Origin: a virus
DNA length: 64,000 nt
Virus record (IMG/VR): IMGVR_UViG_3300028821_000038
Coordinates: 98,315-162,314 of that record
Strand: one strand, 5' to 3'
Positions 2,801-64,000 of the stretch are shown here, piece after piece; within the stretch, counting starts at the first letter, position 1; each line of letters begins with the position of its first letter. The notes beneath the pieces are model-generated. The model ran no database searches and was not told the DNA's origin. It saw only the letters and a list, made by a program, of their open reading frames with translations. Position numbers and translations under genes: made by a program.

Positions 2801-3403
2801 ATGAGTAAAAGCACAGAATATCTATATGGGTGTATACCCTCCGATTTTATATATATGAATTACTTGGAAGCTTTACGGTATAAGAGAGACAAAGCGAAGG
2901 CGTTGTACTTCAAGCTAAAGAAGAGCATAGAGGAAGGCGGTGGGACATTCGAGAAGAGAAAAAGAGAGTTTCATGTTTACAATGCATGGAAATTTAATGA
3001 GAAATTAATTGATGAAGTGGAGCAGGATATGGACAATAATGATTATGATACGGAATTGGATATGGAAATATATAAAAAGACGAAGAGTTGTCTATTGAAT
3101 AAGATAAATGATATTCTTGATAGTTCATGGAATCTTGATAGGCTCCTGAAAAACAAGTATTGGAATATTGGATGTCCGGTTGTGAAGATATTGACCGAAA
3201 TACCTGTAGGCAAGAATCAAACCAGAAGAGATATATACCTTAGACTCATCAATATAATATGGAAAGATAAAGATAGTGTTTTGATGGGAGGAGAGTATGG
3301 TTCGTTTCTTAGTTTCACAGATAAGAAGCTAAAAGAAATGATTAAAAATGTGAAAAATGGGCAAGATATAAACTTTTGGCCACATATTAATTCCGAAAAA
3401 TGA
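2801..3403 (+). CDS. hypothetical protein
   Basis: 200-aa ORF, AAAGGA RBS. Confidence 0.75.
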   Translation: MSKSTEYLYGCIPSDFIYMNYLEALRYKRDKAKALYFKLKKSIEEGGGTFEKRKREFHVYNAWKFNEKLIDEVEQDMDNNDYDTELDMEIYKKTKSCLLNKINDILDSSWNLDRLLKNKYWNIGCPVVKILTEIPVGKNQTRRDIYLRLINIIWKDKDSVLMGGEYGSFLSFTDKKLKEMIKNVKNGQDINFWPHINSEK

Positions 3404-45709: not shown

Positions 45710-46645
45710 ATGACTACTGAAACACCAAGTGTAAAACAAACCAATGCGACTTTGGTTAGAAAGATATATCAGTCTCCTGAACTCCTGAAAGAGGCGATGG
45801 AGAACTCTACCTACTTTATTCGTGAGAAAGTCCGTGAACTTGGATTTGCGAGAAAGCTGATAGAGCCTATCTTTGTAACCGCTGCAGACCTCGACAGAAC
45901 TGTTGAAAATGATCAGCCTACCATTATCCTCGAAAAAGATATGGAGGCCAAGGCGTACACTCTCCCGTTCCGTGGACAAGGTGAGAGTAAATACTGGGAA
46001 GGCGATAAATTCCTTATCACATTCCAAAAAGTAGAGTCTGATCACTTCAATAAGTCTAAATTTGAGATGATGAACAGCAAGACCGACTATAAGACGCTTC
46101 TTCAAAAGCGTATAGTTGAAGAGATGTTCAAAACCGAAGATGAGACTATGCTGGCGGCATTTAACAAGGTTATTGCGGATGCAGAAAATACAGCACCCGG
46201 AACACAGTTCCAGCAAGTGACTGGTGGACTCACCAAGACAAACATCAAAATTCTGATTCAGATGCTTTCCAAGCTCAGAATGCTTCCTCCTGCTGGCGGA
46301 CCGAAGCCCAAAATTCTGATGAACCAGACCCTGAAGATGGAACTCATTGAGCTCGGTATGATCGAGATTGGTGATAGCAATGTTGGTAAGTATTGGAATG
46401 AAGGAACAGTGGGTGTAAGCTCTCTGTTTGGAGTACCTGTTGTGGATACCATCAAGAACGATCTTGTAAAAGACGACGAGATGTATATAATTGCACCGCA
46501 GGACTACTTCGGAAGATTCTTTATTCTCCAGGACCACACAATGGTTATCAAGACCGAAGCTGATATGATTAACTTTTGGTCGTATTCTTCCATGGGTCTT
46601 GGACTTGCAAACACAAAAGGCGTTGCAAAGATACAACTGGTATAA
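45710..46645 (+). CDS. probable major capsid protein (HK97-like fold)
   Basis: Strong RBS; C-ending codon bias suggesting high expression; last gene of head operon before a strong terminator; ILMN...LFGVPVV...MGLGLANTKGVAKIQL termini. Confidence 0.7.
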   Translation: MTTETPSVKQTNATLVRKIYQSPELLKEAMENSTYFIREKVRELGFARKLIEPIFVTAADLDRTVENDQPTIILEKDMEAKAYTLPFRGQGESKYWEGDKFLITFQKVESDHFNKSKFEMMNSKTDYKTLLQKRIVEEMFKTEDETMLAAFNKVIADAENTAPGTQFQQVTGGLTKTNIKILIQMLSKLRMLPPAGGPKPKILMNQTLKMELIELGMIEIGDSNVGKYWNEGTVGVSSLFGVPVVDTIKNDLVKDDEMYIIAPQDYFGRFFILQDHTMVIKTEADMINFWSYSSMGLGLANTKGVAKIQLV

Positions 46646-54017: not shown

Positions 54018-54821
54018 TTATGATATAAAATTTGACGCTTCAATCCACTCTGTGAGTCCGTTGGACAGTTTTTTGACCACAAAGGTCCTCCCTGCTATAT
54101 CTGCATATCGTGAACCGTATATCTTTACGGCATCACGAAACTCTCGTGAATATTCTGCATCAAAATCGTTTTGGCAGGCAATATCCGCCTTGCTGGGGTA
54201 TATAGAGGGAGAGAGATTGTGAAAAATTAGCGCTTTGCTGAGCCATTTGTTTGTTTTTTGCATAATAGTTGACTCGAGCAGGAAATTAGCCTTTGTGTCG
54301 CCACTGATGGCAATCACCACATCATAGCTACACCTTAATATCACGCTATAGCTTTCGCTCTTATAGACGCATTGGATGCTGTCTATTGTTCGTATATCTC
54401 CCATATTTTGTGTGCCAAACGAGTTTATATCATTAGTCGCTATTGAATATAAATTTATAAAATGTTTTTTATGCGTCGAAGATGATATATATTCAGTCTG
54501 TGTGTCCTTGATTAGCTCTTTCATTAATTCTGGATTAGGACACACTATACTGACATGAGAATCCTTATTGATATATTTTTTAAACTTCAATAAAGCTCTC
54601 AGTGAGCCCATATGTTCATCATCTATTCTTGGGATGATAATGATTTTTATGTTATTTATGAACCCATCATAGTAGCGGTTGAGCTCTTTTAGCTTATGGA
54701 ACACATTGTATCCACATCCCACAAGTACCGCACTGTTTCCTGACTTGATATAGAAAGATGGATTTGTTAAATCTGAGTCAAAAACACCTCCATCGCCTAC
54801 CACATGCACCTTTAGATCCAT
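54018..54821 (-). CDS. metallo-beta-lactamase-fold protein with degenerate metal motif
   Basis: VGDGGVF..TNPSF..LVGCG..IIIPRIDDEHMGSL..ISGDT..LIFH. Confidence 0.65.
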   Translation of the reverse strand: MDLKVHVVGDGGVFDSDLTNPSFYIKSGNSAVLVGCGYNVFHKLKELNRYYDGFINNIKIIIIPRIDDEHMGSLRALLKFKKYINKDSHVSIVCPNPELMKELIKDTQTEYISSSTHKKHFINLYSIATNDINSFGTQNMGDIRTIDSIQCVYKSESYSVILRCSYDVVIAISGDTKANFLLESTIMQKTNKWLSKALIFHNLSPSIYPSKADIACQNDFDAEYSREFRDAVKIYGSRYADIAGRTFVVKKLSNGLTEWIEASNFIS

Positions 54822-54960
54822 ACTTGTTCCTCCTTCTTTTTTTAAGTTTTTCTTCATATTTTTTCTTCTCGAATTCTTTTTGGGCATCTATATACAGAAA
54901 GTAGACGCTAACTGTAATAATTTCCCATATTACAACGAGAAACACACTTAGAAGACTCAT
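54778..54960 (-). CDS. small single-TM protein
   Basis: MSLLSVFLVVIWEIITVSVYFLY plus basic tail. Confidence 0.5.
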   Translation of the reverse strand: MSLLSVFLVVIWEIITVSVYFLYIDAQKEFEKKKYEEKLKKRRRNKYGSKGACGRRWRCF

Positions 54961-58376: not shown

Positions 58377-58686
58377 TTTCGTCCTTTCCTTTTATAGTAT
58401 CTATAGAGGATTCCCAGTCAAAAAAGCCTCGATGCTTCCATCTTTCTGCTTTTGATATGATTAGATTTTTAATCCATTCTGCACTGCTTTTTTTGTACCT
58501 TTCGTTGGATAGTGAAATGGCAGCAATTGCTATAGTTTCCATATCAGAAGCTCTCTGGGTTTCCTCTTTTATTGCAGACAATATCCCGTGACTACATGCC
58601 TCATTGATATCCTTGTAGAGAGATGGGTCTTGCTCTACTTCTTGTTTTATCTTTTTTAAGAATCTATATCTTTCTTCATGGTTCAT
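58360..58686 (-). CDS. hypothetical protein
   Basis: RFLKKIKQEVEQDP resembles the C-terminus of 51470-52123 (KFLAKIAKEVENNP). Confidence 0.6.
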   Translation of the reverse strand: MNHEERYRFLKKIKQEVEQDPSLYKDINEACSHGILSAIKEETQRASDMETIAIAAISLSNERYKKSSAEWIKNLIISKAERWKHRGFFDWESSIDTIKGKDENDSQN

Positions 58687-60471: not shown

Positions 60472-61093
60472 ATTGTCCTCCTTTTTTATTTATAACAAAT
60501 AGACCATCGTGTATATACGGCCAATGTGGGATACTGTAGTACTTGATGGGGTATGGCACCAAGGCGTTAAAAAAGGCGTCATTGGCGCAGCATCCGCCCA
60601 GCCATTCCCCAATGTATAGCATTTGAGCCCCAGGTTTCATAGCCATCCATATATCCCTTGCGAGATCGTTGTAGTATGGAGGCCATGATAGTATGATTGT
60701 GTCATATTCCTTGGCGATTTTCACAGGATCTTCTCTAAAGTCAATCCCGTAGTCAAAATCGTCACAGTCAAATACATGCTCTTTGGGGCCATTGGCATAT
60801 ACTGTCATGCCTGCATCCCTGAGTTTCTTTGACAAAAAGCCGGAGCCGGCTATGATGTCAACGGTCTTGCCCATAGATAGGGCAACTATATTGCTAATCA
60901 ACTCATCACTTACGATACACCATGAGAGTTGAGAAATATATTCTTTCCTAAGCATCACATTGTCTGCCTGTAAAAGAATGTATTGCGCGTCTGTTATTTC
61001 GTCCTCTTTAATTTTCTTGAAGACTCTAGCAACTCGCTCCTCGTTAAAGCAAACATCATCATGCGCAAAAATCTTGTTTATAGTGCTTTTCAA
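60464..61093 (-). CDS. SAM-dependent methyltransferase-like protein
   Basis: VDIIAGSGFL motif I; ILSWPPY; LYIGE..GGCCA. Confidence 0.65.
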   Translation of the reverse strand: MKSTINKIFAHDDVCFNEERVARVFKKIKEDEITDAQYILLQADNVMLRKEYISQLSWCIVSDELISNIVALSMGKTVDIIAGSGFLSKKLRDAGMTVYANGPKEHVFDCDDFDYGIDFREDPVKIAKEYDTIILSWPPYYNDLARDIWMAMKPGAQMLYIGEWLGGCCANDAFFNALVPYPIKYYSIPHWPYIHDGLFVINKKGGQYD

Positions 61094-61114
61094 AGCATCC
61101 TCCTTTATTTGATA

Positions 61115-61130
61115 TCATATATATATACCA
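61115..61130 (-). promoter_or_regulatory. early-type promoter motif TGGTATATATATATGA
   Basis: Same motif at 63544-63560, variant at 61643-61659, partial copy at ~2137 (+). Confidence 0.6.
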
Positions 61131-61187
61131 TTTAAAAAGACCTTCTGTTGTGCAAGCTAAAAAAAATACTTCCTAAAAAAGAAGGCT

Positions 61188-61242
61188 AAAAAAACAGGGG
61201 TTGGATGCTCTGCCGTGGCTCGTGCAGGCCTCCTGTTTTTTT
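61188..61242. terminator. bidirectional terminator-like inverted repeat
   Basis: aaaaaaacagggg...cctcctgttttttt. Confidence 0.55.
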
Positions 61243-61335
61243 ATCTCGCGGGATATGTGAGCCAAAGCATATCCCGCCCGCTTTTCTTGTCCTTCAATGT
61301 GTCATCAGGGAGCGGAAACCCATTGACACACGCCT

Positions 61336-61551
61336 TTATTGCGCAGGTGGTTCTGCGGGTTTTAGCGCCTTTTTCTTGGCGCAGTACCTCTTTGCCCACT
61401 CCTCCATATGGACACCGTTGATGTGGCCCATTAGGCCACCTACTGTTTTTTTCTCTGCTAGTCTACCATCTTGGTAGACTAGTAGTGTTGCTATAAAGTG
61501 GCCCGATGGGCCACCAGTTATATTTGTCCATTCATACGTCAGGCTTGCCAT
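61336..61551 (-). CDS. small hypothetical protein
   Basis: AGGAGG RBS before MASLTYEW. Confidence 0.65.
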   Translation of the reverse strand: MASLTYEWTNITGGPSGHFIATLLVYQDGRLAEKKTVGGLMGHINGVHMEEWAKRYCAKKKALKPAEPPAQ

Positions 61552-61573
61552 TTTTTCCTCCTTTTTATTGGAA

Positions 61574-61630
61574 GCCCCGGCATGGGGCACCCATAATTAA
61601 GCGGGTGTTAGCTGACATTTTAGTCAGCAC
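61574..61630 (-). ncRNA. three-hairpin leader RNA element, copy A
   Basis: GCUGAC-UAAAAU-GUCAGC / CACCCG-CUUAAUUA-UGGGUG / CCCC-AUGCC-GGGG. Confidence 0.6.
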
Positions 61631-61733
61631 ATATCTTTCTTGTCATGTTTATCTACCAGCTTTTTTTTAAAAAGTTCACCCTTTTCGTCCTTGAGAAAAA
61701 TGGGGGCTAGAGAAAAGAAAAAGCTTTTTTGAG

Positions 61734-61784
61734 GCCCCTGATTGAGGCACTCTTATTAAGTGGGGCCGACATTTCAGCCGGCGC
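61734..61784 (-). ncRNA. three-hairpin RNA element, copy B
   Basis: GCCGGC-UGAAAU-GUCGGC / CACUU-AAUAA-GAGUG / CCUC-AAUCA-GGGG. Confidence 0.55.
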
Positions 61785-61856
61785 ATAAAGAGCAGCATGT
61801 TGCACTCCAAAAAAGAGGCATTTGTATTGCGCCCCTCTTTTGGCGCTTTGGTGGGG

Positions 61857-62234
61857 TTATTTTTTAAACCGAACAGCAGTCCCCACCTTTACTCCTTCGG
61901 CATATAGCACTTTGCCGTCGGAGCCAAACACCTTCCTGCCGGGGGACACGACATCATCCCTGTCTTTTAGGTGCTCGGGGCACTCTGGATGTCCTTGAAA
62001 TCTATGGAGAGCATCCAGAATGAATAGGGGAACTATGTATTTGATCCCCTTTTTTTTGGGTGGGAGATGGAGTATGTCTTGGTAAATCTGAACATACTCC
62101 ACAACTTCGCCTTGTCCTCCCACCGCCATATTTTCTGATACAAGCAGTGGCTTCTGCTTGTTGGCGGGGAAGGTAACCACCCCACTTTTCCCTTTTATCT
62201 TTATGGGGTGGTCGGTGAGGTTGATGTATTTCAC
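61857..62234 (-). CDS. phage hypothetical protein
   Basis: AGGAGG RBS, GTG start; INLTDHPI...LPP...YIV...RDDVVSPG. Confidence 0.7.
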   Translation of the reverse strand: MKYINLTDHPIKIKGKSGVVTFPANKQKPLLVSENMAVGGQGEVVEYVQIYQDILHLPPKKKGIKYIVPLFILDALHRFQGHPECPEHLKDRDDVVSPGRKVFGSDGKVLYAEGVKVGTAVRFKK

Positions 62235-62286
62235 TTCTCACCTCCTTTTTGTTTTTTTATTTTTTTTGAAATTACGCATAGCATGC

Positions 62287-62745
62287 TTACATTCTTATTT
62301 TGACGCCGATTAATTCCTCTATCTTGTTATAGAGGACCTCCCAGAAATGTTTTTTATCTGGATGTTGAGCACGACGTAATACAACAAGCTCCGCATATTC
62401 AAGCGGAAGCTTGTCAATTATCCATATTTCATGTGTCTCCGTATATTTGCGACCGTAATTGTCGGTCGCTTCCTCTTCTGTTTCCGTTTTTACCCTAGGA
62501 AGGGCTGCTAAATATTTGGCAGCCTCCTTTCGCTGCTTCAGAAGTCTTTCAGCAGCACCACTTTGCTCCATCAGAGACTTATATAGTGTTTCATTTATTT
62601 CTCCGCCAGCGCCAGTGGTAAGGTCGTCGATATTGATGTTCTGGGGAATTGGCCTCAGTTCCATTCCCCAAGCATTCTCTTTAATCTTCCTTATCATTTC
62701 CGCATAAGCTGCCGCTTTATACGGATTGTATCCAGAGCCAAACAT
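62287..62745 (-). CDS. hypothetical protein
   Basis: AGGAG RBS. Confidence 0.7.
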   Translation of the reverse strand: MFGSGYNPYKAAAYAEMIRKIKENAWGMELRPIPQNINIDDLTTGAGGEINETLYKSLMEQSGAAERLLKQRKEAAKYLAALPRVKTETEEEATDNYGRKYTETHEIWIIDKLPLEYAELVVLRRAQHPDKKHFWEVLYNKIEELIGVKIRM

Positions 62746-62756
62746 TTTTTCTCCTT

Positions 62757-63452
62757 TTAATCAGGCTTTATTTCAAATAAATTGAACTCATTTGCCATTT
62801 TGAATTGCTGCAGAAGTCGTTTAAATTTCTTTTCGCTTCTTACTACAGCTGCTTCAATTTTTTGAATTCCTTCTTCGAACTTAGTCCCGTTCTCTAGGCA
62901 CTCGCGAATAATTTCGTCAGCGCCATAGTAGTGCATATACACTTTCTCGCTACGGTTAGCTAATTCCGTAGCTTTTCCTAGTGCTTCTTTGTATGCTTTC
63001 AATTCATCACCATTAAGCGTCTCTTCTTTTATTTTCTTTGTCAACAATATTTCATCGTTGACCATGAATAGCACTTCATCCCACCCTTGTCTTTTGAAGT
63101 GCTCTTTGATTATATCTTTATGCTCCCACACGGAGCTTTTATGCTCCTGTGGGATAATTATATACTTTTTTCTAATAACGCTTTTTATTGGCGCTCCCTC
63201 AAGTGGGAAGCGCCATTGTTCAATATTTTTTTCTTCGTCCCTAAATTGCTCCAACAAAACAATATCTATTGGAGCTACTTTTGCCCATTTATGGACATAT
63301 AGTCCCTTTGGGCCCTCCCTGATGTCATCTTCATAAACGAAGACGACATCAAGGCCCTCATTCCAGTAGTGTTTTATAAACACTACATTTTTCCCTCTCT
63401 TCCCTAGGGCTCCACCCCTAGGGAACTCTTTAAAAATTTTTAGTTTTATCAT
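62757..63452 (-). CDS. hypothetical protein
   Basis: AGGAGG RBS; first gene after leader copy C. Confidence 0.7.
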   Translation of the reverse strand: MIKLKIFKEFPRGGALGKRGKNVVFIKHYWNEGLDVVFVYEDDIREGPKGLYVHKWAKVAPIDIVLLEQFRDEEKNIEQWRFPLEGAPIKSVIRKKYIIIPQEHKSSVWEHKDIIKEHFKRQGWDEVLFMVNDEILLTKKIKEETLNGDELKAYKEALGKATELANRSEKVYMHYYGADEIIRECLENGTKFEEGIQKIEAAVVRSEKKFKRLLQQFKMANEFNLFEIKPD

Positions 63453-63476
63453 TTTTTCCTCCTTTCATATAGAAGA

Positions 63477-63533
63477 GTCCATGACGTGGGCACCCGTAAT
63501 TAATCGGGTGTTGGCCAACATTTCAGTTAGCGC
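63477..63533 (-). ncRNA. three-hairpin leader RNA element, copy C
   Basis: GCUAAC-UGAAAU-GUUGGC / CACCCG-AUUAAUUA-CGGGUG / CCA-CGUCA-UGG. Confidence 0.6.
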
Positions 63534-63706
63534 ATTCTTACAATCATATATATATACCAGCTTTTTAAATTAAGAAAATTTACTTTTTTCGTCCTTATAA
63601 AAATAAGGGGGGGAGCTATTATGAATTTAAAAAATAATAGATATGTAAAAAAGACTTCCCTAAAATCCATTCGGCCTTGGCGAGGCCGTTGGCAGAATGT
63701 AGCCTA

Positions 63707-63738
63707 AAAAAAAATAGGGGCCTCCTACCCCCCCTATT
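63707..63738 (-). terminator. intrinsic terminator after the MYG1-like gene
   Basis: Minus strand aatagggg...cccctatttttttt. Confidence 0.6.
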
Positions 63739-63739
63739 C

Positions 63740-64000
63740 CTAGAGAGATATGTCAAAGATCTCTTTGACGTATCTCTCCATTGAAGCCCGTTCAGGGGCG
63801 ACAGCAAAAAACTTGCCCGCATGAACGAACTTCATGTAGTCGCGGGGCTCTAGACCGCGACCAACTCTCTCGAAAGATCCAGGCTCTGCTGGAGCCACCT
63901 GGATCTTCCAGTCTCCCGCCTTATCATCTTCCCAGACGACCGCCTCTACGTCTGGGTTGATGACACCGTTGAATACTTTCTGCCAGTGCCTCATGTGCCC
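63740..64000 (-). CDS. C-terminus of a MYG1-like (UPF0160) protein, partial
   Basis: WKIQVAP..PGSFE and FVHAGKFFAV match the MYG1-family C-terminal pattern. Confidence 0.55.
   Translation of the reverse strand, partial: GHMRHWQKVFNGVINPDVEAVVWEDDKAGDWKIQVAPAEPGSFERVGRGLEPRDYMKFVHAGKFFAVAPERASMERYVKEIFDISL

Follow-up and report, generated by a model that had tools for sequence, protein, structure and literature searches.

A repeated structured RNA-like element beside ribosome-binding sites in the early gene region of a hydrothermal vent phage

A phage from a hydrothermal vent, with a genome of about 164 kb that encodes its own multisubunit RNA polymerase, carries in its early gene region several copies of a non-coding, RNA-like element. 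Three short hairpins (P1, P2 and P3) with conserved pairing form its core, and in every gene-linked copy a fourth helix, P4, is predicted to cover the Shine-Dalgarno (SD) sequence of the next gene. In our opinion, this element acts in cis, as a leader or intercistronic RNA regulating the translation or the mRNA stability of early genes, and we give this reading a probability of about 50%. The window considered here is the whole stretch of 64,000 nucleotides that was analysed, and the repeated cassette with the element copies is found where the leftward early genes of the phage begin.

Three copies, A, B and C, were reported in an earlier note and were found again on the minus strand with all the features described at the positions given. 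Copy A (61570-61634) contains P1 at 61611-61628, P2 at 61588-61607 and P3 at 61575-61587 and is recognized by folding and by an element model, R1 (88 bits). Copy C (63472-63537), with P1 at 63514-63531, P2 at 63491-63510 and P3 at 63478-63490, was recognized by the same model (84 bits), by its fold and by pair counts. Copy B (61730-61788, 67 bits) is an orphan with no ribosome-binding site or gene behind it. Copies D, E, F and G, the helix P4 and the role of the copies at module junctions were all missing from that note. Copy D is an inverted fragment (41 bits with R1) located in a leader. Copy E is cut off at the start of the contig, where a 98-nt block of cassette A recurs together with its promoter-like motif, and is 98% identical to A over 98–100 nt. 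Copy F, upstream of a 126-aa gene, is diverged and has a mosaic structure, since it shares with A only P3, P4 and the translation start. Copy G is a full copy in the contig of a related phage, L099, and was found with 70.5 bits (E = 3e-17) by a model from which it had been left out.

P1 consists of 6 bp with the loop URAAAU in the full copies, P2 of 6–7 bp with an A/U-rich loop and P3 of 4–5 bp with a loop that is 5 nt long in every copy, as had been noticed before. The pattern of the first hairpin, GCYRRC-TRAAAT-GTYRGC, is present exactly three times in the window (61611-61628, 61765-61782 and 63514-63531) against 0.08 expected, and none of 100 shuffled sequences reached three. The second hairpin is CACCCG/YGGGUG with the loop (C/A)UUAAUUA in A and C, while B has a 5-nt deletion and a shifted register, CACUU/GAGUG. 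B has an intact P1 in which changes are compensated, a P2 that is shorter and in a shifted register, and the loop AAUCA in P3; P1 and P3 have been kept here despite the absence of a gene behind this copy. The G-U pairs are valid on the minus strand only.

Counting of the pairs in A, B and C showed 93.5% of the cells paired and a change on both sides in three pairs. With G added, 95.2% of the cells are paired, 4 of 16 pairs are changed on both sides and 10 extra pair types appear. The pairing score of this set was equalled in 7 of 500 shuffles, a test in which related rows may beat shuffles even without structure, and when the 3' partner was slid by 1–3 columns only 23–43% of the cells remained paired. 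One-sided changes in P1, and likewise those in A, C and G, all lead to G-U pairs on the sense strand. Between A and C, the P1-P2 part is about 80% identical and the flanking spacers have about half identity in an alignment read by eye, with 5 of 5 stem substitutions keeping the pairing. A population variant at 61593, seen in one run, converts a G-U pair in P2 of copy A into G-C. Compared with shuffled sequences, the full leaders fold with z-scores of −3.4 (A), −3.1 (C) and −1.8 (B). The power of this covariation is low because there are only four full copies, which come from two closely related phages. Taken together, these comparisons of sequences indicate that the P1-P3 structure is under selection. 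Conservation is higher in the loops of P1 and P2 than in that of P3. A T-loop is a five-nucleotide loop with a reverse-Hoogsteen pair between U1 and A5 and an intercalation gap; the sequence URAAA is compatible with it, and the weak relative in contig L095 has A, not U, at the first loop position. A leader peptide was also considered and rejected, because the reading frames are not conserved: in A, C and D the frame opened by the upstream AUG runs for two codons before a stop, and indels interrupt the frames.

The interpretation in the earlier note is borne out in part: the pair counts and the searches support a repeated, structure-conserving and non-coding RNA-like element outside Rfam. No family of Rfam 15 matched anywhere in the window at gathering thresholds, and at E <= 10 the core P1-P3 of every copy in the region 60500-64000 remained unmatched; the lone sub-threshold match, STnc230 (24 bits against a threshold of 50), touches the ribosome-binding site region of copy C only. 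The region had no blastn match among 50,697 phage records, and exact-pattern scans of IMG/VR with three element patterns were equally empty. A pattern of the promoter block gave 42 matches in IMG/VR, approximately the estimated chance level, and the element was absent from all 42. A pattern scan of metagenomes gave 16 matches to the demanded hairpin only; in both of the two inspected the rest of the element was absent, and one lay in an apparent coding region. Eight matches to a P3 pattern in a genome collection, mostly in high-GC bacteria, were taken as chance. Ten contigs related by their large terminase (33–74% identity) contained no real match to R1, and a single match of 9.8 bits among them was rejected as a terminator-like hairpin. 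Searches for related loci with the 231-aa, 546-aa and MYG1-like proteins returned nothing useful, and further contigs with the 231-aa gene were 100% identical, so that no variation was gained from them. A second model, R2, which included G, did not raise the weak candidates in L095/L094 (8–12 bits) and L101/L102 (8.5–12.6 bits), which are possibly distant analogues at most. Among the sequencing runs with the phage, none is listed as an RNA run, and their contigs are near-identical; the 5' end of one contig, L085, is an adapter-like artefact. The family is thus narrowly distributed, being found in two closely related uncultured phages.

The promoter-like 14-mer GGTATATATATATG occurs six times in the genome without mismatch, always pointing towards the genes downstream of it, and heads other units too. 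In cassette C it is found as an exact match at 63545..63558 (minus strand), and in cassette A a motif scan found it as GGTAGATAAACATG, with 3 mismatches, at 61644..61657 (minus strand). The block AAGGACGAAAA, found five times as an exact sense-strand match within the early region, lies upstream of the promoters of C (63586..63596) and A (61682..61692), exactly matched on the minus strand in both. As the earlier note had stated, A and C are situated between this shared block (AAGGACGAAAA ... AAGCTGGTAKATA, two exact matches) and AGGAGG with an ATG. We infer the transcription start sites from the position of the motif. Cassette C is preceded by an intrinsic terminator, GGGGG-UAGGAGG-CCCCU followed by U9 (63716..63732, minus strand; terminator scan and fold), which is predicted to end the upstream MYG1-like gene and to insulate the cassette. 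It serves a 231-aa ORFan gene (62757..63452, minus strand), followed by genes of 152 and 125 aa down to 61857. Behind cassette A stands a 71-aa gene (61336..61551, minus strand), also an ORFan, and the genes served by the element are ORFans in general. On the same strand, a terminator-like hairpin of about 14 bp with a U tract (61805..61846, by folding) follows the 125-aa gene upstream of B. In the minimum-energy fold, the 3' arm of P3 of B may instead enter a terminator-like pairing, GGGGC/GCCCC followed by AUUUUU (61696..61738, minus strand), and this alternative lies just upstream of promoter A.

The tie between the element and a promoter, proposed before, holds for A, C and E but does not extend to G, F and F', which are intercistronic and have no motif, to the geneless B or to the inverted D. 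Small units with the element each have a promoter-like motif of their own. Conversely, the third copy of the 14-mer (61116..61129, minus strand) heads a long operon (genes of 209 aa, 546 aa and further ones) with a short leader from which the element is absent, and the orthologous promoter in L091 likewise lacks it. It may be concluded that the constant partner of the element is the downstream ribosome-binding site, not the promoter.

P4 directly abuts P3 and is formed by a CUUCC-like tract pairing with the GGAGG SD sequence of the next gene; the minimum-energy folds of all gene-linked copies (A, C, G, F and F') contain it. In copy A it is CUUCC/GGAGG with an 8-nt loop (61557..61574, minus strand) beside the ATG at 61549-61551, and in copy C it is UCUUCU/GGAGGA, also with an 8-nt loop (63457..63476, minus strand), beside the ATG at 63450-63452, both in the minimum-energy and centroid folds. 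The register of P4 slips between the copies, and a column-wise count of P3/P4 pairs over A, G, F, F' and C gave no result because the helices slip register in the alignment; P4 is moreover unable to show compensatory change because the SD sequence is constrained. A helix of 4–5 bp between the P3 loop and the AUG region is possible in 5 of 5 gene-linked copies, a complementarity to be read against the 3–16% of all 5-mers that pair equally well in each copy; it does not discriminate between copies, as the loop of C fits both start types. In L096, a more distant relative, the orthologous 231-aa gene has a simple hairpin leader only.

The gene order differs between the two phages where the copies sit. 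In L099 a homolog of the 125-aa gene is followed by G, an unrelated 170-aa gene, F', a 127-aa gene and MYG1. In this phage, one series runs through the 125-aa gene, B, the promoter with A and the 71-aa gene, and another through E, a 114-aa gene, F, the 126-aa gene, MYG1, C and the genes of 231, 152 and 125 aa. The 170-aa gene of L099 thus stands in place of the 114-aa gene between G/E and F, and at G/B the module adjoining the 125-aa gene is not the same in the two phages. From these orders, the copies look like marks of gene-module swap points.

Under the leader reading, the copies would form that part of a repeated regulatory cassette which is transcribed without coding for protein, and the element would act in cis on the mRNA to set the level or timing of translation of the downstream early gene. 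The SD sequence and the AUG would be occluded by the P3/P4 region, a lock that could be opened by a protein, by temperature or by the ribosome itself, and the 5' end of the message would possibly be protected by the element. P1 and P2 with their conserved loops would be the likely recognition part. Transcription of the element, its regulatory effect and any trans-acting partner are what we infer here. Counted against this reading were the shortness of the helices (4–7 bp) in a phage whose host may be thermophilic, the keeping of P1 and P3 in the geneless B, and the position of D, inverted yet in a leader. The slipping register of P4, the unspecific fit of the P3 loop, the low power of the covariation and the simple leader in L096 count in the same direction. 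A more far-reaching version, which seems to us unlikely, is that P1 and P2 dock a factor of phage or host origin, be it a protein, a small ligand or the RNA polymerase itself, which switches the P3/P4 lock on the SD sequence and start codon or makes transcription termination-resistant; the element would then represent a new class of trans-controlled early-gene switch and a portable gene-shuffling unit.

Among the rival explanations, the one that survives best, although likewise unlikely, is that the copies are a scar of recombination, i.e. duplicated promoter and ribosome-binding site cassettes homogenised by gene conversion, with hairpins that have no function beyond weak insulation. The near identity of A and E (98% over about 100 nt) fits this explanation, as do the orphan B, the inverted fragment D, the mosaic F with only P3, P4 and the translation start of A, and the composition of G, whose 5' half matches B more closely (22/27) and whose 3' half matches A more closely (32/39). 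However, four pairs are changed on both sides, and the one-sided changes in P1, as well as all those in A, C and G, keep the one-strand pairing; these changes count against a scar because neither gene conversion nor drift predicts them. A comparison of A with C also shows the element to be more conserved than its flanks, and G is intact in another phage, where the promoter is absent.

A processing site, at which an endoribonuclease of the host or of the phage would cleave the polycistronic early transcripts to give individual stable messages, appears rather improbable. In the early region of phage T7, RNase III sites divide polycistronic transcripts in this way. The spread of positions is T7-like, with copies in leaders (A, C and E), in intercistronic spaces (F and G) and at the 3' end of a unit (B), and the stronger conservation of the P1 and P2 loops relative to the P3 loop agrees with it. 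The likeness to T7 is thus in the several related structured elements at leader, intercistronic and 3'-terminal positions, but each T7 site is one hairpin that measures about 20 bp or more and contains an internal loop, and the longest helix here, of 6–7 bp, is far below a classical RNase III substrate.

Processive antitermination, which the earlier note had proposed beside a leader function, is not supported here and seems still less probable. It would work either through the RNA by itself, as in put, or as in nut, with P1 as a boxB-type hairpin to which a phage protein binds, and would let the host or phage polymerase read through terminators between the early cassettes. A, C and E, lying 12–14 nt downstream of the promoter-like motif, fit a put-type placement with the promoter upstream and terminators downstream, and there are 12 terminator-like hairpins between cassettes against 3.4 ± 2.1 expected. 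P1 can be drawn in a boxB-like form, with U-U closing a GAAA loop. In B, a 9-mer identical to an rrn-type boxA, TGCTCTTTA, stands 3 nt upstream of P1, and the TAAAAT loop of P1 in A is at about +22 to +27, reminiscent of a -10-like word of putL. Nevertheless, G, F and F' have no promoter motif, G and F being intercistronic, and the long operon that antitermination was supposed to drive starts from its own element-free promoter at 61116-61129 and contains no convincing minus-strand intrinsic terminators. B does follow the terminator-like hairpin described above, as the earlier note had stated. The boxA-like word is no commoner than chance allows: among the copies it is in B only, and it occurs twice in the window against 0.81 expected, with 17 of 100 shuffles reaching two. 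The loop of A is UAAAAU, not GNRA, and the search for an arginine-rich N-like protein, i.e. one with an arginine-rich N-terminus, among the early ORFs gave out-of-frame ORFs only. The phage, moreover, has its own RNA polymerase.

It is very improbable that P1 (GCTGAC-N6-GTCAGC) and P2 (CACCCG-N8-CGGGTG) are DNA operators through which a phage regulator blocks or activates the adjacent promoter: both come close to perfect palindromes and stand at roughly +15 to +60 relative to promoter-like motifs, and D, working as such a site in either orientation, is again in a leader, downstream of the -10-like word TGATATAGT, but the half-site changes are matched between the arms, as pairing predicts, the imperfections of P1-P2 are without exception G-U pairs valid on a single strand, P3 and P4 differ in kind from such palindromic sites, and G and F have no promoter to regulate.

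Of known RNA elements, the nut site of lambda consists of boxA and boxB, the latter being a short stem with a GNRA-like loop bound by the arginine-rich N protein. P1 resembles boxB in its short stem closed by U and its GAAA-type loop, and the boxA-like word is just upstream of B; that word is, however, absent from A, C, D and G, P2-P4 have no counterpart in nut, and no N-like protein was seen. The put RNA of HK022, about 70 nt long, has two long irregular stem-loops and a triplex, binds the zinc-binding domain of the β' subunit of RNA polymerase and suppresses termination without protein factors, and putL has a -10-like word near +23 to +28 (PMC9378689). Both putL/putR and the present element occur as several structured copies of about 60–70 nt per phage downstream of early promoters, with a -10-like word near +22 to +28. 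The likeness to put that had been suggested nevertheless fails in architecture, since the present core has three short regular hairpins, or four with P4 (4–7 bp), and some copies are far from a promoter.

SD-sequestering leaders include RNA thermometers, the expression platforms of riboswitches and the translational operators of T4 RegA and gene 32. In common with these, a pyrimidine tract pairs here with the SD sequence directly downstream of a structured, sensor-like region, although the element matches no Rfam family in sequence or structure. If leader control is true, the element would be a new cis-regulatory RNA motif of phages, originating from little-studied vent phages with a multisubunit RNA polymerase. 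Its practical weight is limited, because the family has been seen in just two uncultured phages that are close relatives.

The other relevant comparison is with PeSLs (promoter-early stem-loops), mobile regulatory cassettes of T4-type phages, in which an intergenic promoter, stem-loop(s) with G/C tracts, an SD sequence and a start codon are repeated among small ORFan early genes, at boundaries where genes have been inserted, replaced or rearranged from one related phage to another (Arbiol et al. 2010, PMC2839356; Comeau et al. 2014, PMC4122927). A repeated intergenic composite of promoter, stem-loop and SD-start among ORFan early genes is also found here, with its copies at replacement or rearrangement boundaries between L099 and this phage. 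The copies are long and similar and so would provide homology for recombination, and gene modules would therefore be exchanged there, as with PeSLs. The differences are in the phage lineage (a vent phage with a multisubunit RNA polymerase), in the promoter, which is GGTATATATATATG, a scan for TTGACA/TATAAT-type sites at the cassette promoters having found none, and in the position of P1-P3 downstream of the promoter and without a U tract, not as a terminator or attenuator; the promoters are preceded by separate G/C-tract terminators. The hairpins here also have compensatory changes and end in an SD-sequestering helix, and the element occurs free of a promoter as well. If this is true, the idea of PeSLs as regulatory cassettes that double as recombination points shuffling ORFan early genes would be extended beyond T4-like phages, to cassettes whose conserved part is a structured RNA instead of a promoter-terminator.

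The three copies of a three-hairpin element (P1-P3) described in the earlier note are indeed present on the minus strand, at window positions 61570-61634 (A), 61730-61788 (B) and 63472-63537 (C), and the pattern of the first hairpin was observed in the window 3 times against 0.08 expected. An Rfam search at the element gave no match even at E <= 10. Further copies were found with a covariance model based on A, B and C. Copy D (contig positions 740-791, 41 bits with this model) is inverted and partial and, though inverted, still lies within the leader of a 193-aa gene. Copy E occupies the contig's first 98 nt, where the sequence is 98% identical to promoter A together with the P1 5' arm, and is truncated at the contig edge. 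The diverged copy F, located upstream of a 126-aa gene in the extension provided by an ENA contig from this phage, has P3, the anti-Shine-Dalgarno tract and the translation start in common with A. Contig L099 belongs to a related phage, whose homolog of the 126-aa protein is 73% identical, and contains copy G (70.5 bits, E 3e-17, when G was left out of the model) and F', the ortholog of F.

In the predicted folds of A and C, P1 has 6 bp and the loop URAAAU, P2 has 6 bp and the loop (C/A)UUAAUUA, and P3 has 4-5 bp and a 5-nt loop; in B, P1 and P3 are kept and P2 is shortened and shifted. Pair statistics cover the four full copies A, C, B and G. Paired cells make up 95.2%, and of the 16 pairs, 4 have changes in both partners (two belong to P1, one to P2, where it is seen as G-C, G-U and A-U, and one to P3). 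Extra pair types number 10, the observed pair conservation was reached in 7 of 500 shuffles, and sliding of the 3' partner lowered pairing to 23-43%. Every one-sided change in P1, and every one in A, C and G, leads to G-U on the sense strand; a variant at 61593 in one run converts a G-U pair in P2 of A into G-C. Between A and C, P1-P2 are about 80% identical with pairing kept at all five stem substitutions, and the spacers on either side of the element are about half identical in an alignment read by eye. F and F' have five or six differences, every one in a loop or linker. As the four full copies come from just two closely related phages and the power is therefore low, the P1-P3 structure is considered supported, not proven.

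A pyrimidine tract (CUUCC, UCUUCU or CUUCU) directly follows P3 on its 3' side in every gene-linked copy and is predicted to pair with the GGAGG Shine-Dalgarno sequence in a fourth hairpin, P4, which did not figure in the earlier note. Its loop measures 8 nt in A, C and G, but 9-11 nt for F and F'; P4 is present in the minimum-energy fold of all five, and there are no linkers between P2, P3 and P4. The P3 loop could also pair over 4-5 bp with the region around the AUG in 5 of 5 copies; this is only a hint, because 3-16% of random 5-mers per copy do equally well and the loop of C fits both start types.

The same phage was assembled with 100% identity from several samples, and sequencing runs that contain it are labelled as hydrothermal-vent and subsurface metagenomes. 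In the IMG/VR contig of 162,314 bp, whose last 64 kb form the window, minus-strand genes extend from about window position 46000 to the contig end and over its initial 1.3 kb; these genes carry strong AGGAGG ribosome-binding sites, and most of them are ORFans. One early-operon gene (window 54018-54887) matches the Anti-Pycsar Apyc1 family, and an MYG1-like exonuclease gene (L083:930-1721) lies directly upstream of cassette C. The ENA contig (L083:1-1460) continues 1460 nt past the window end and starts with a ribosome-binding site at its first base. Two independent assemblies, of 162,314 bp and 163,736 bp, each have a breakpoint within an element copy: the first base of one contig falls in the P1 5' arm, and that of the other coincides with the start of the next ribosome-binding site. 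Since both broke in this repeat, a circular or circularly permuted genome is probable. The gap is perhaps short, about 60 nt on the assumption that E is like A, and if so the completeness estimate of 82% is too low. An adapter-like ATGACCGCCACTCCCGGCGGTCGAGTGATTTAGAGAC, found at the ends of several contigs from different runs (including L085:1-127), is probably a library artefact and not phage DNA.

Copies A, C and E are placed 12-14 nt downstream of the 14-mer GGTATATATATATG or its variant GGTAGATAAACATG. The genome contains six exact copies of this 14-mer, each facing its downstream genes and without a -35 box; promoter-like motifs in the window are at 61116-61129, 61644-61657 and 63545-63558. 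Four of the six head other units, and that at 61116-61129 heads the long operon without an element. Variants head leaders in related phages (GGTATATATTTATAG at L095:62-76 and TGGTATATAAC at L091:413-423). By a promoter scan, the motif does not conform to the sigma-70 consensus; as the phage encodes a multisubunit RNA polymerase, with beta and beta' Pfam domains matched in one 1447-aa frame, the 14-mer could be used by the host or the phage enzyme. Another word, AAGGACGAAAA, has five exact occurrences on the sense strand of the early region (window 61682-61692, 63586-63596 and 58377-58387; contig about 730-741): it precedes the 14-mer by about 30 nt at promoters A, C and E, is next to inverted D, and serves as the ribosome-binding site and spacer of a 205-aa gene. 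In a relative (L091:361-372), its reverse complement precedes the orthologous promoter by about 50 nt. In copy A, ATGACA and TAAAAT (the P1 loop), separated by 18 nt on the minus strand (61617-61646), match a sigma-70-like promoter at 10 of 12 positions and could also serve as a promoter-proximal pause signal; in B, C and D, TAAAAT is replaced by TGAAAT. The tie to an early promoter suggested earlier thus holds for A, C and E, but G, about 20 nt past the stop codon of a 125-aa-gene homolog, has no 14-mer, and F and F' are intercistronic. As a general rule it fails: B has neither a ribosome-binding site nor a gene behind it, D is inverted, and the long-operon promoter lacks the element.

In contig L101 of a more distant relative (519-577, 1220-1279 and 3068-3129; also L102), an element of three hairpins, CUGAG-UGAAAAU-CUCAG, CCGGCU-UUAA(U)A-AGUCGG and CCCCU...AGGGG, is present three times; every copy begins at the stop codon of a different gene and is followed by a terminator and a sigma-70-like promoter; layout and loops are like those of P1-P3, yet the model scores are only 8.5-12.6 bits. 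The leader behind GGTATATATTTATAG (L095:99-175 and L094:8907-8982) contains GCC-AGAAAU-GGU, UCCC-GAUUAAUAA-GGGA and GGC-GAAA-GCC, shares the 10-mer CCCGATTAAT and the P2 flanks with C, and is a possible distant homolog (11.9 bits, E 0.3). Another repeated hairpin (L095:770-800 and 870-900) has a compensatory change, CAUC-AAGCUG-GAUG versus CGCC-AAGCUG-GGCG, and each copy is followed by GUAAAACG, resembling the promoter block AAGCTGGTAGATAAAC of cassette A.

It may be concluded that the element is real, structure-conserving and non-coding, has no library match, goes with the region where translation of early genes starts, and is located at module junctions. In our opinion, it would be a cis-acting leader or intercistronic RNA tuning translation or stability, with a probability of about one half. 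Rival explanations are a processing site, neutral homology of cassettes, antitermination and a DNA operator. Antitermination driving the long early operon, as proposed in the earlier note, fits the position of the element, and terminator-like hairpins are enriched between cassettes (12 against 3.4 expected), but nothing beyond position was found for it: every unit has its own promoter, that of the long operon is element-free, a scan of this operon gave no convincing minus-strand terminators, the boxA-like 9-mer is indeed present in B but in no other copy and at chance level, and no N-like protein was found.

Among known systems, put RNAs have two long irregular stem-loops (PMC9378689), which are absent from this element. 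Closer are the PeSL cassettes of T4-type phages, in which a promoter, a G/C-tract stem-loop, a Shine-Dalgarno sequence and a start codon are found among ORFan early genes (PMC2839356). The related phage has the order 125-aa homolog, G, unrelated 170-aa gene, F', 127-aa gene and MYG1-like gene, and this phage has E, 114-aa gene, F, 126-aa gene, MYG1-like gene, terminator, C, and the 231-, 152- and 125-aa genes, then terminator, B, promoter A, A and the 71-aa gene. From these orders, two element copies flank the site of a gene replacement, and the neighbours linked to the 125-aa gene at an element copy differ between the two phages; the 5' half of G is closer to B and its 3' half to A. The element is a kind of mobile regulatory cassette, so far from two uncultured phages only. 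G/C-tract terminators precede promoters in this phage too, and the exchange of genes at element copies is the behaviour described for the T4-type PeSL cassettes (PMC2839356).
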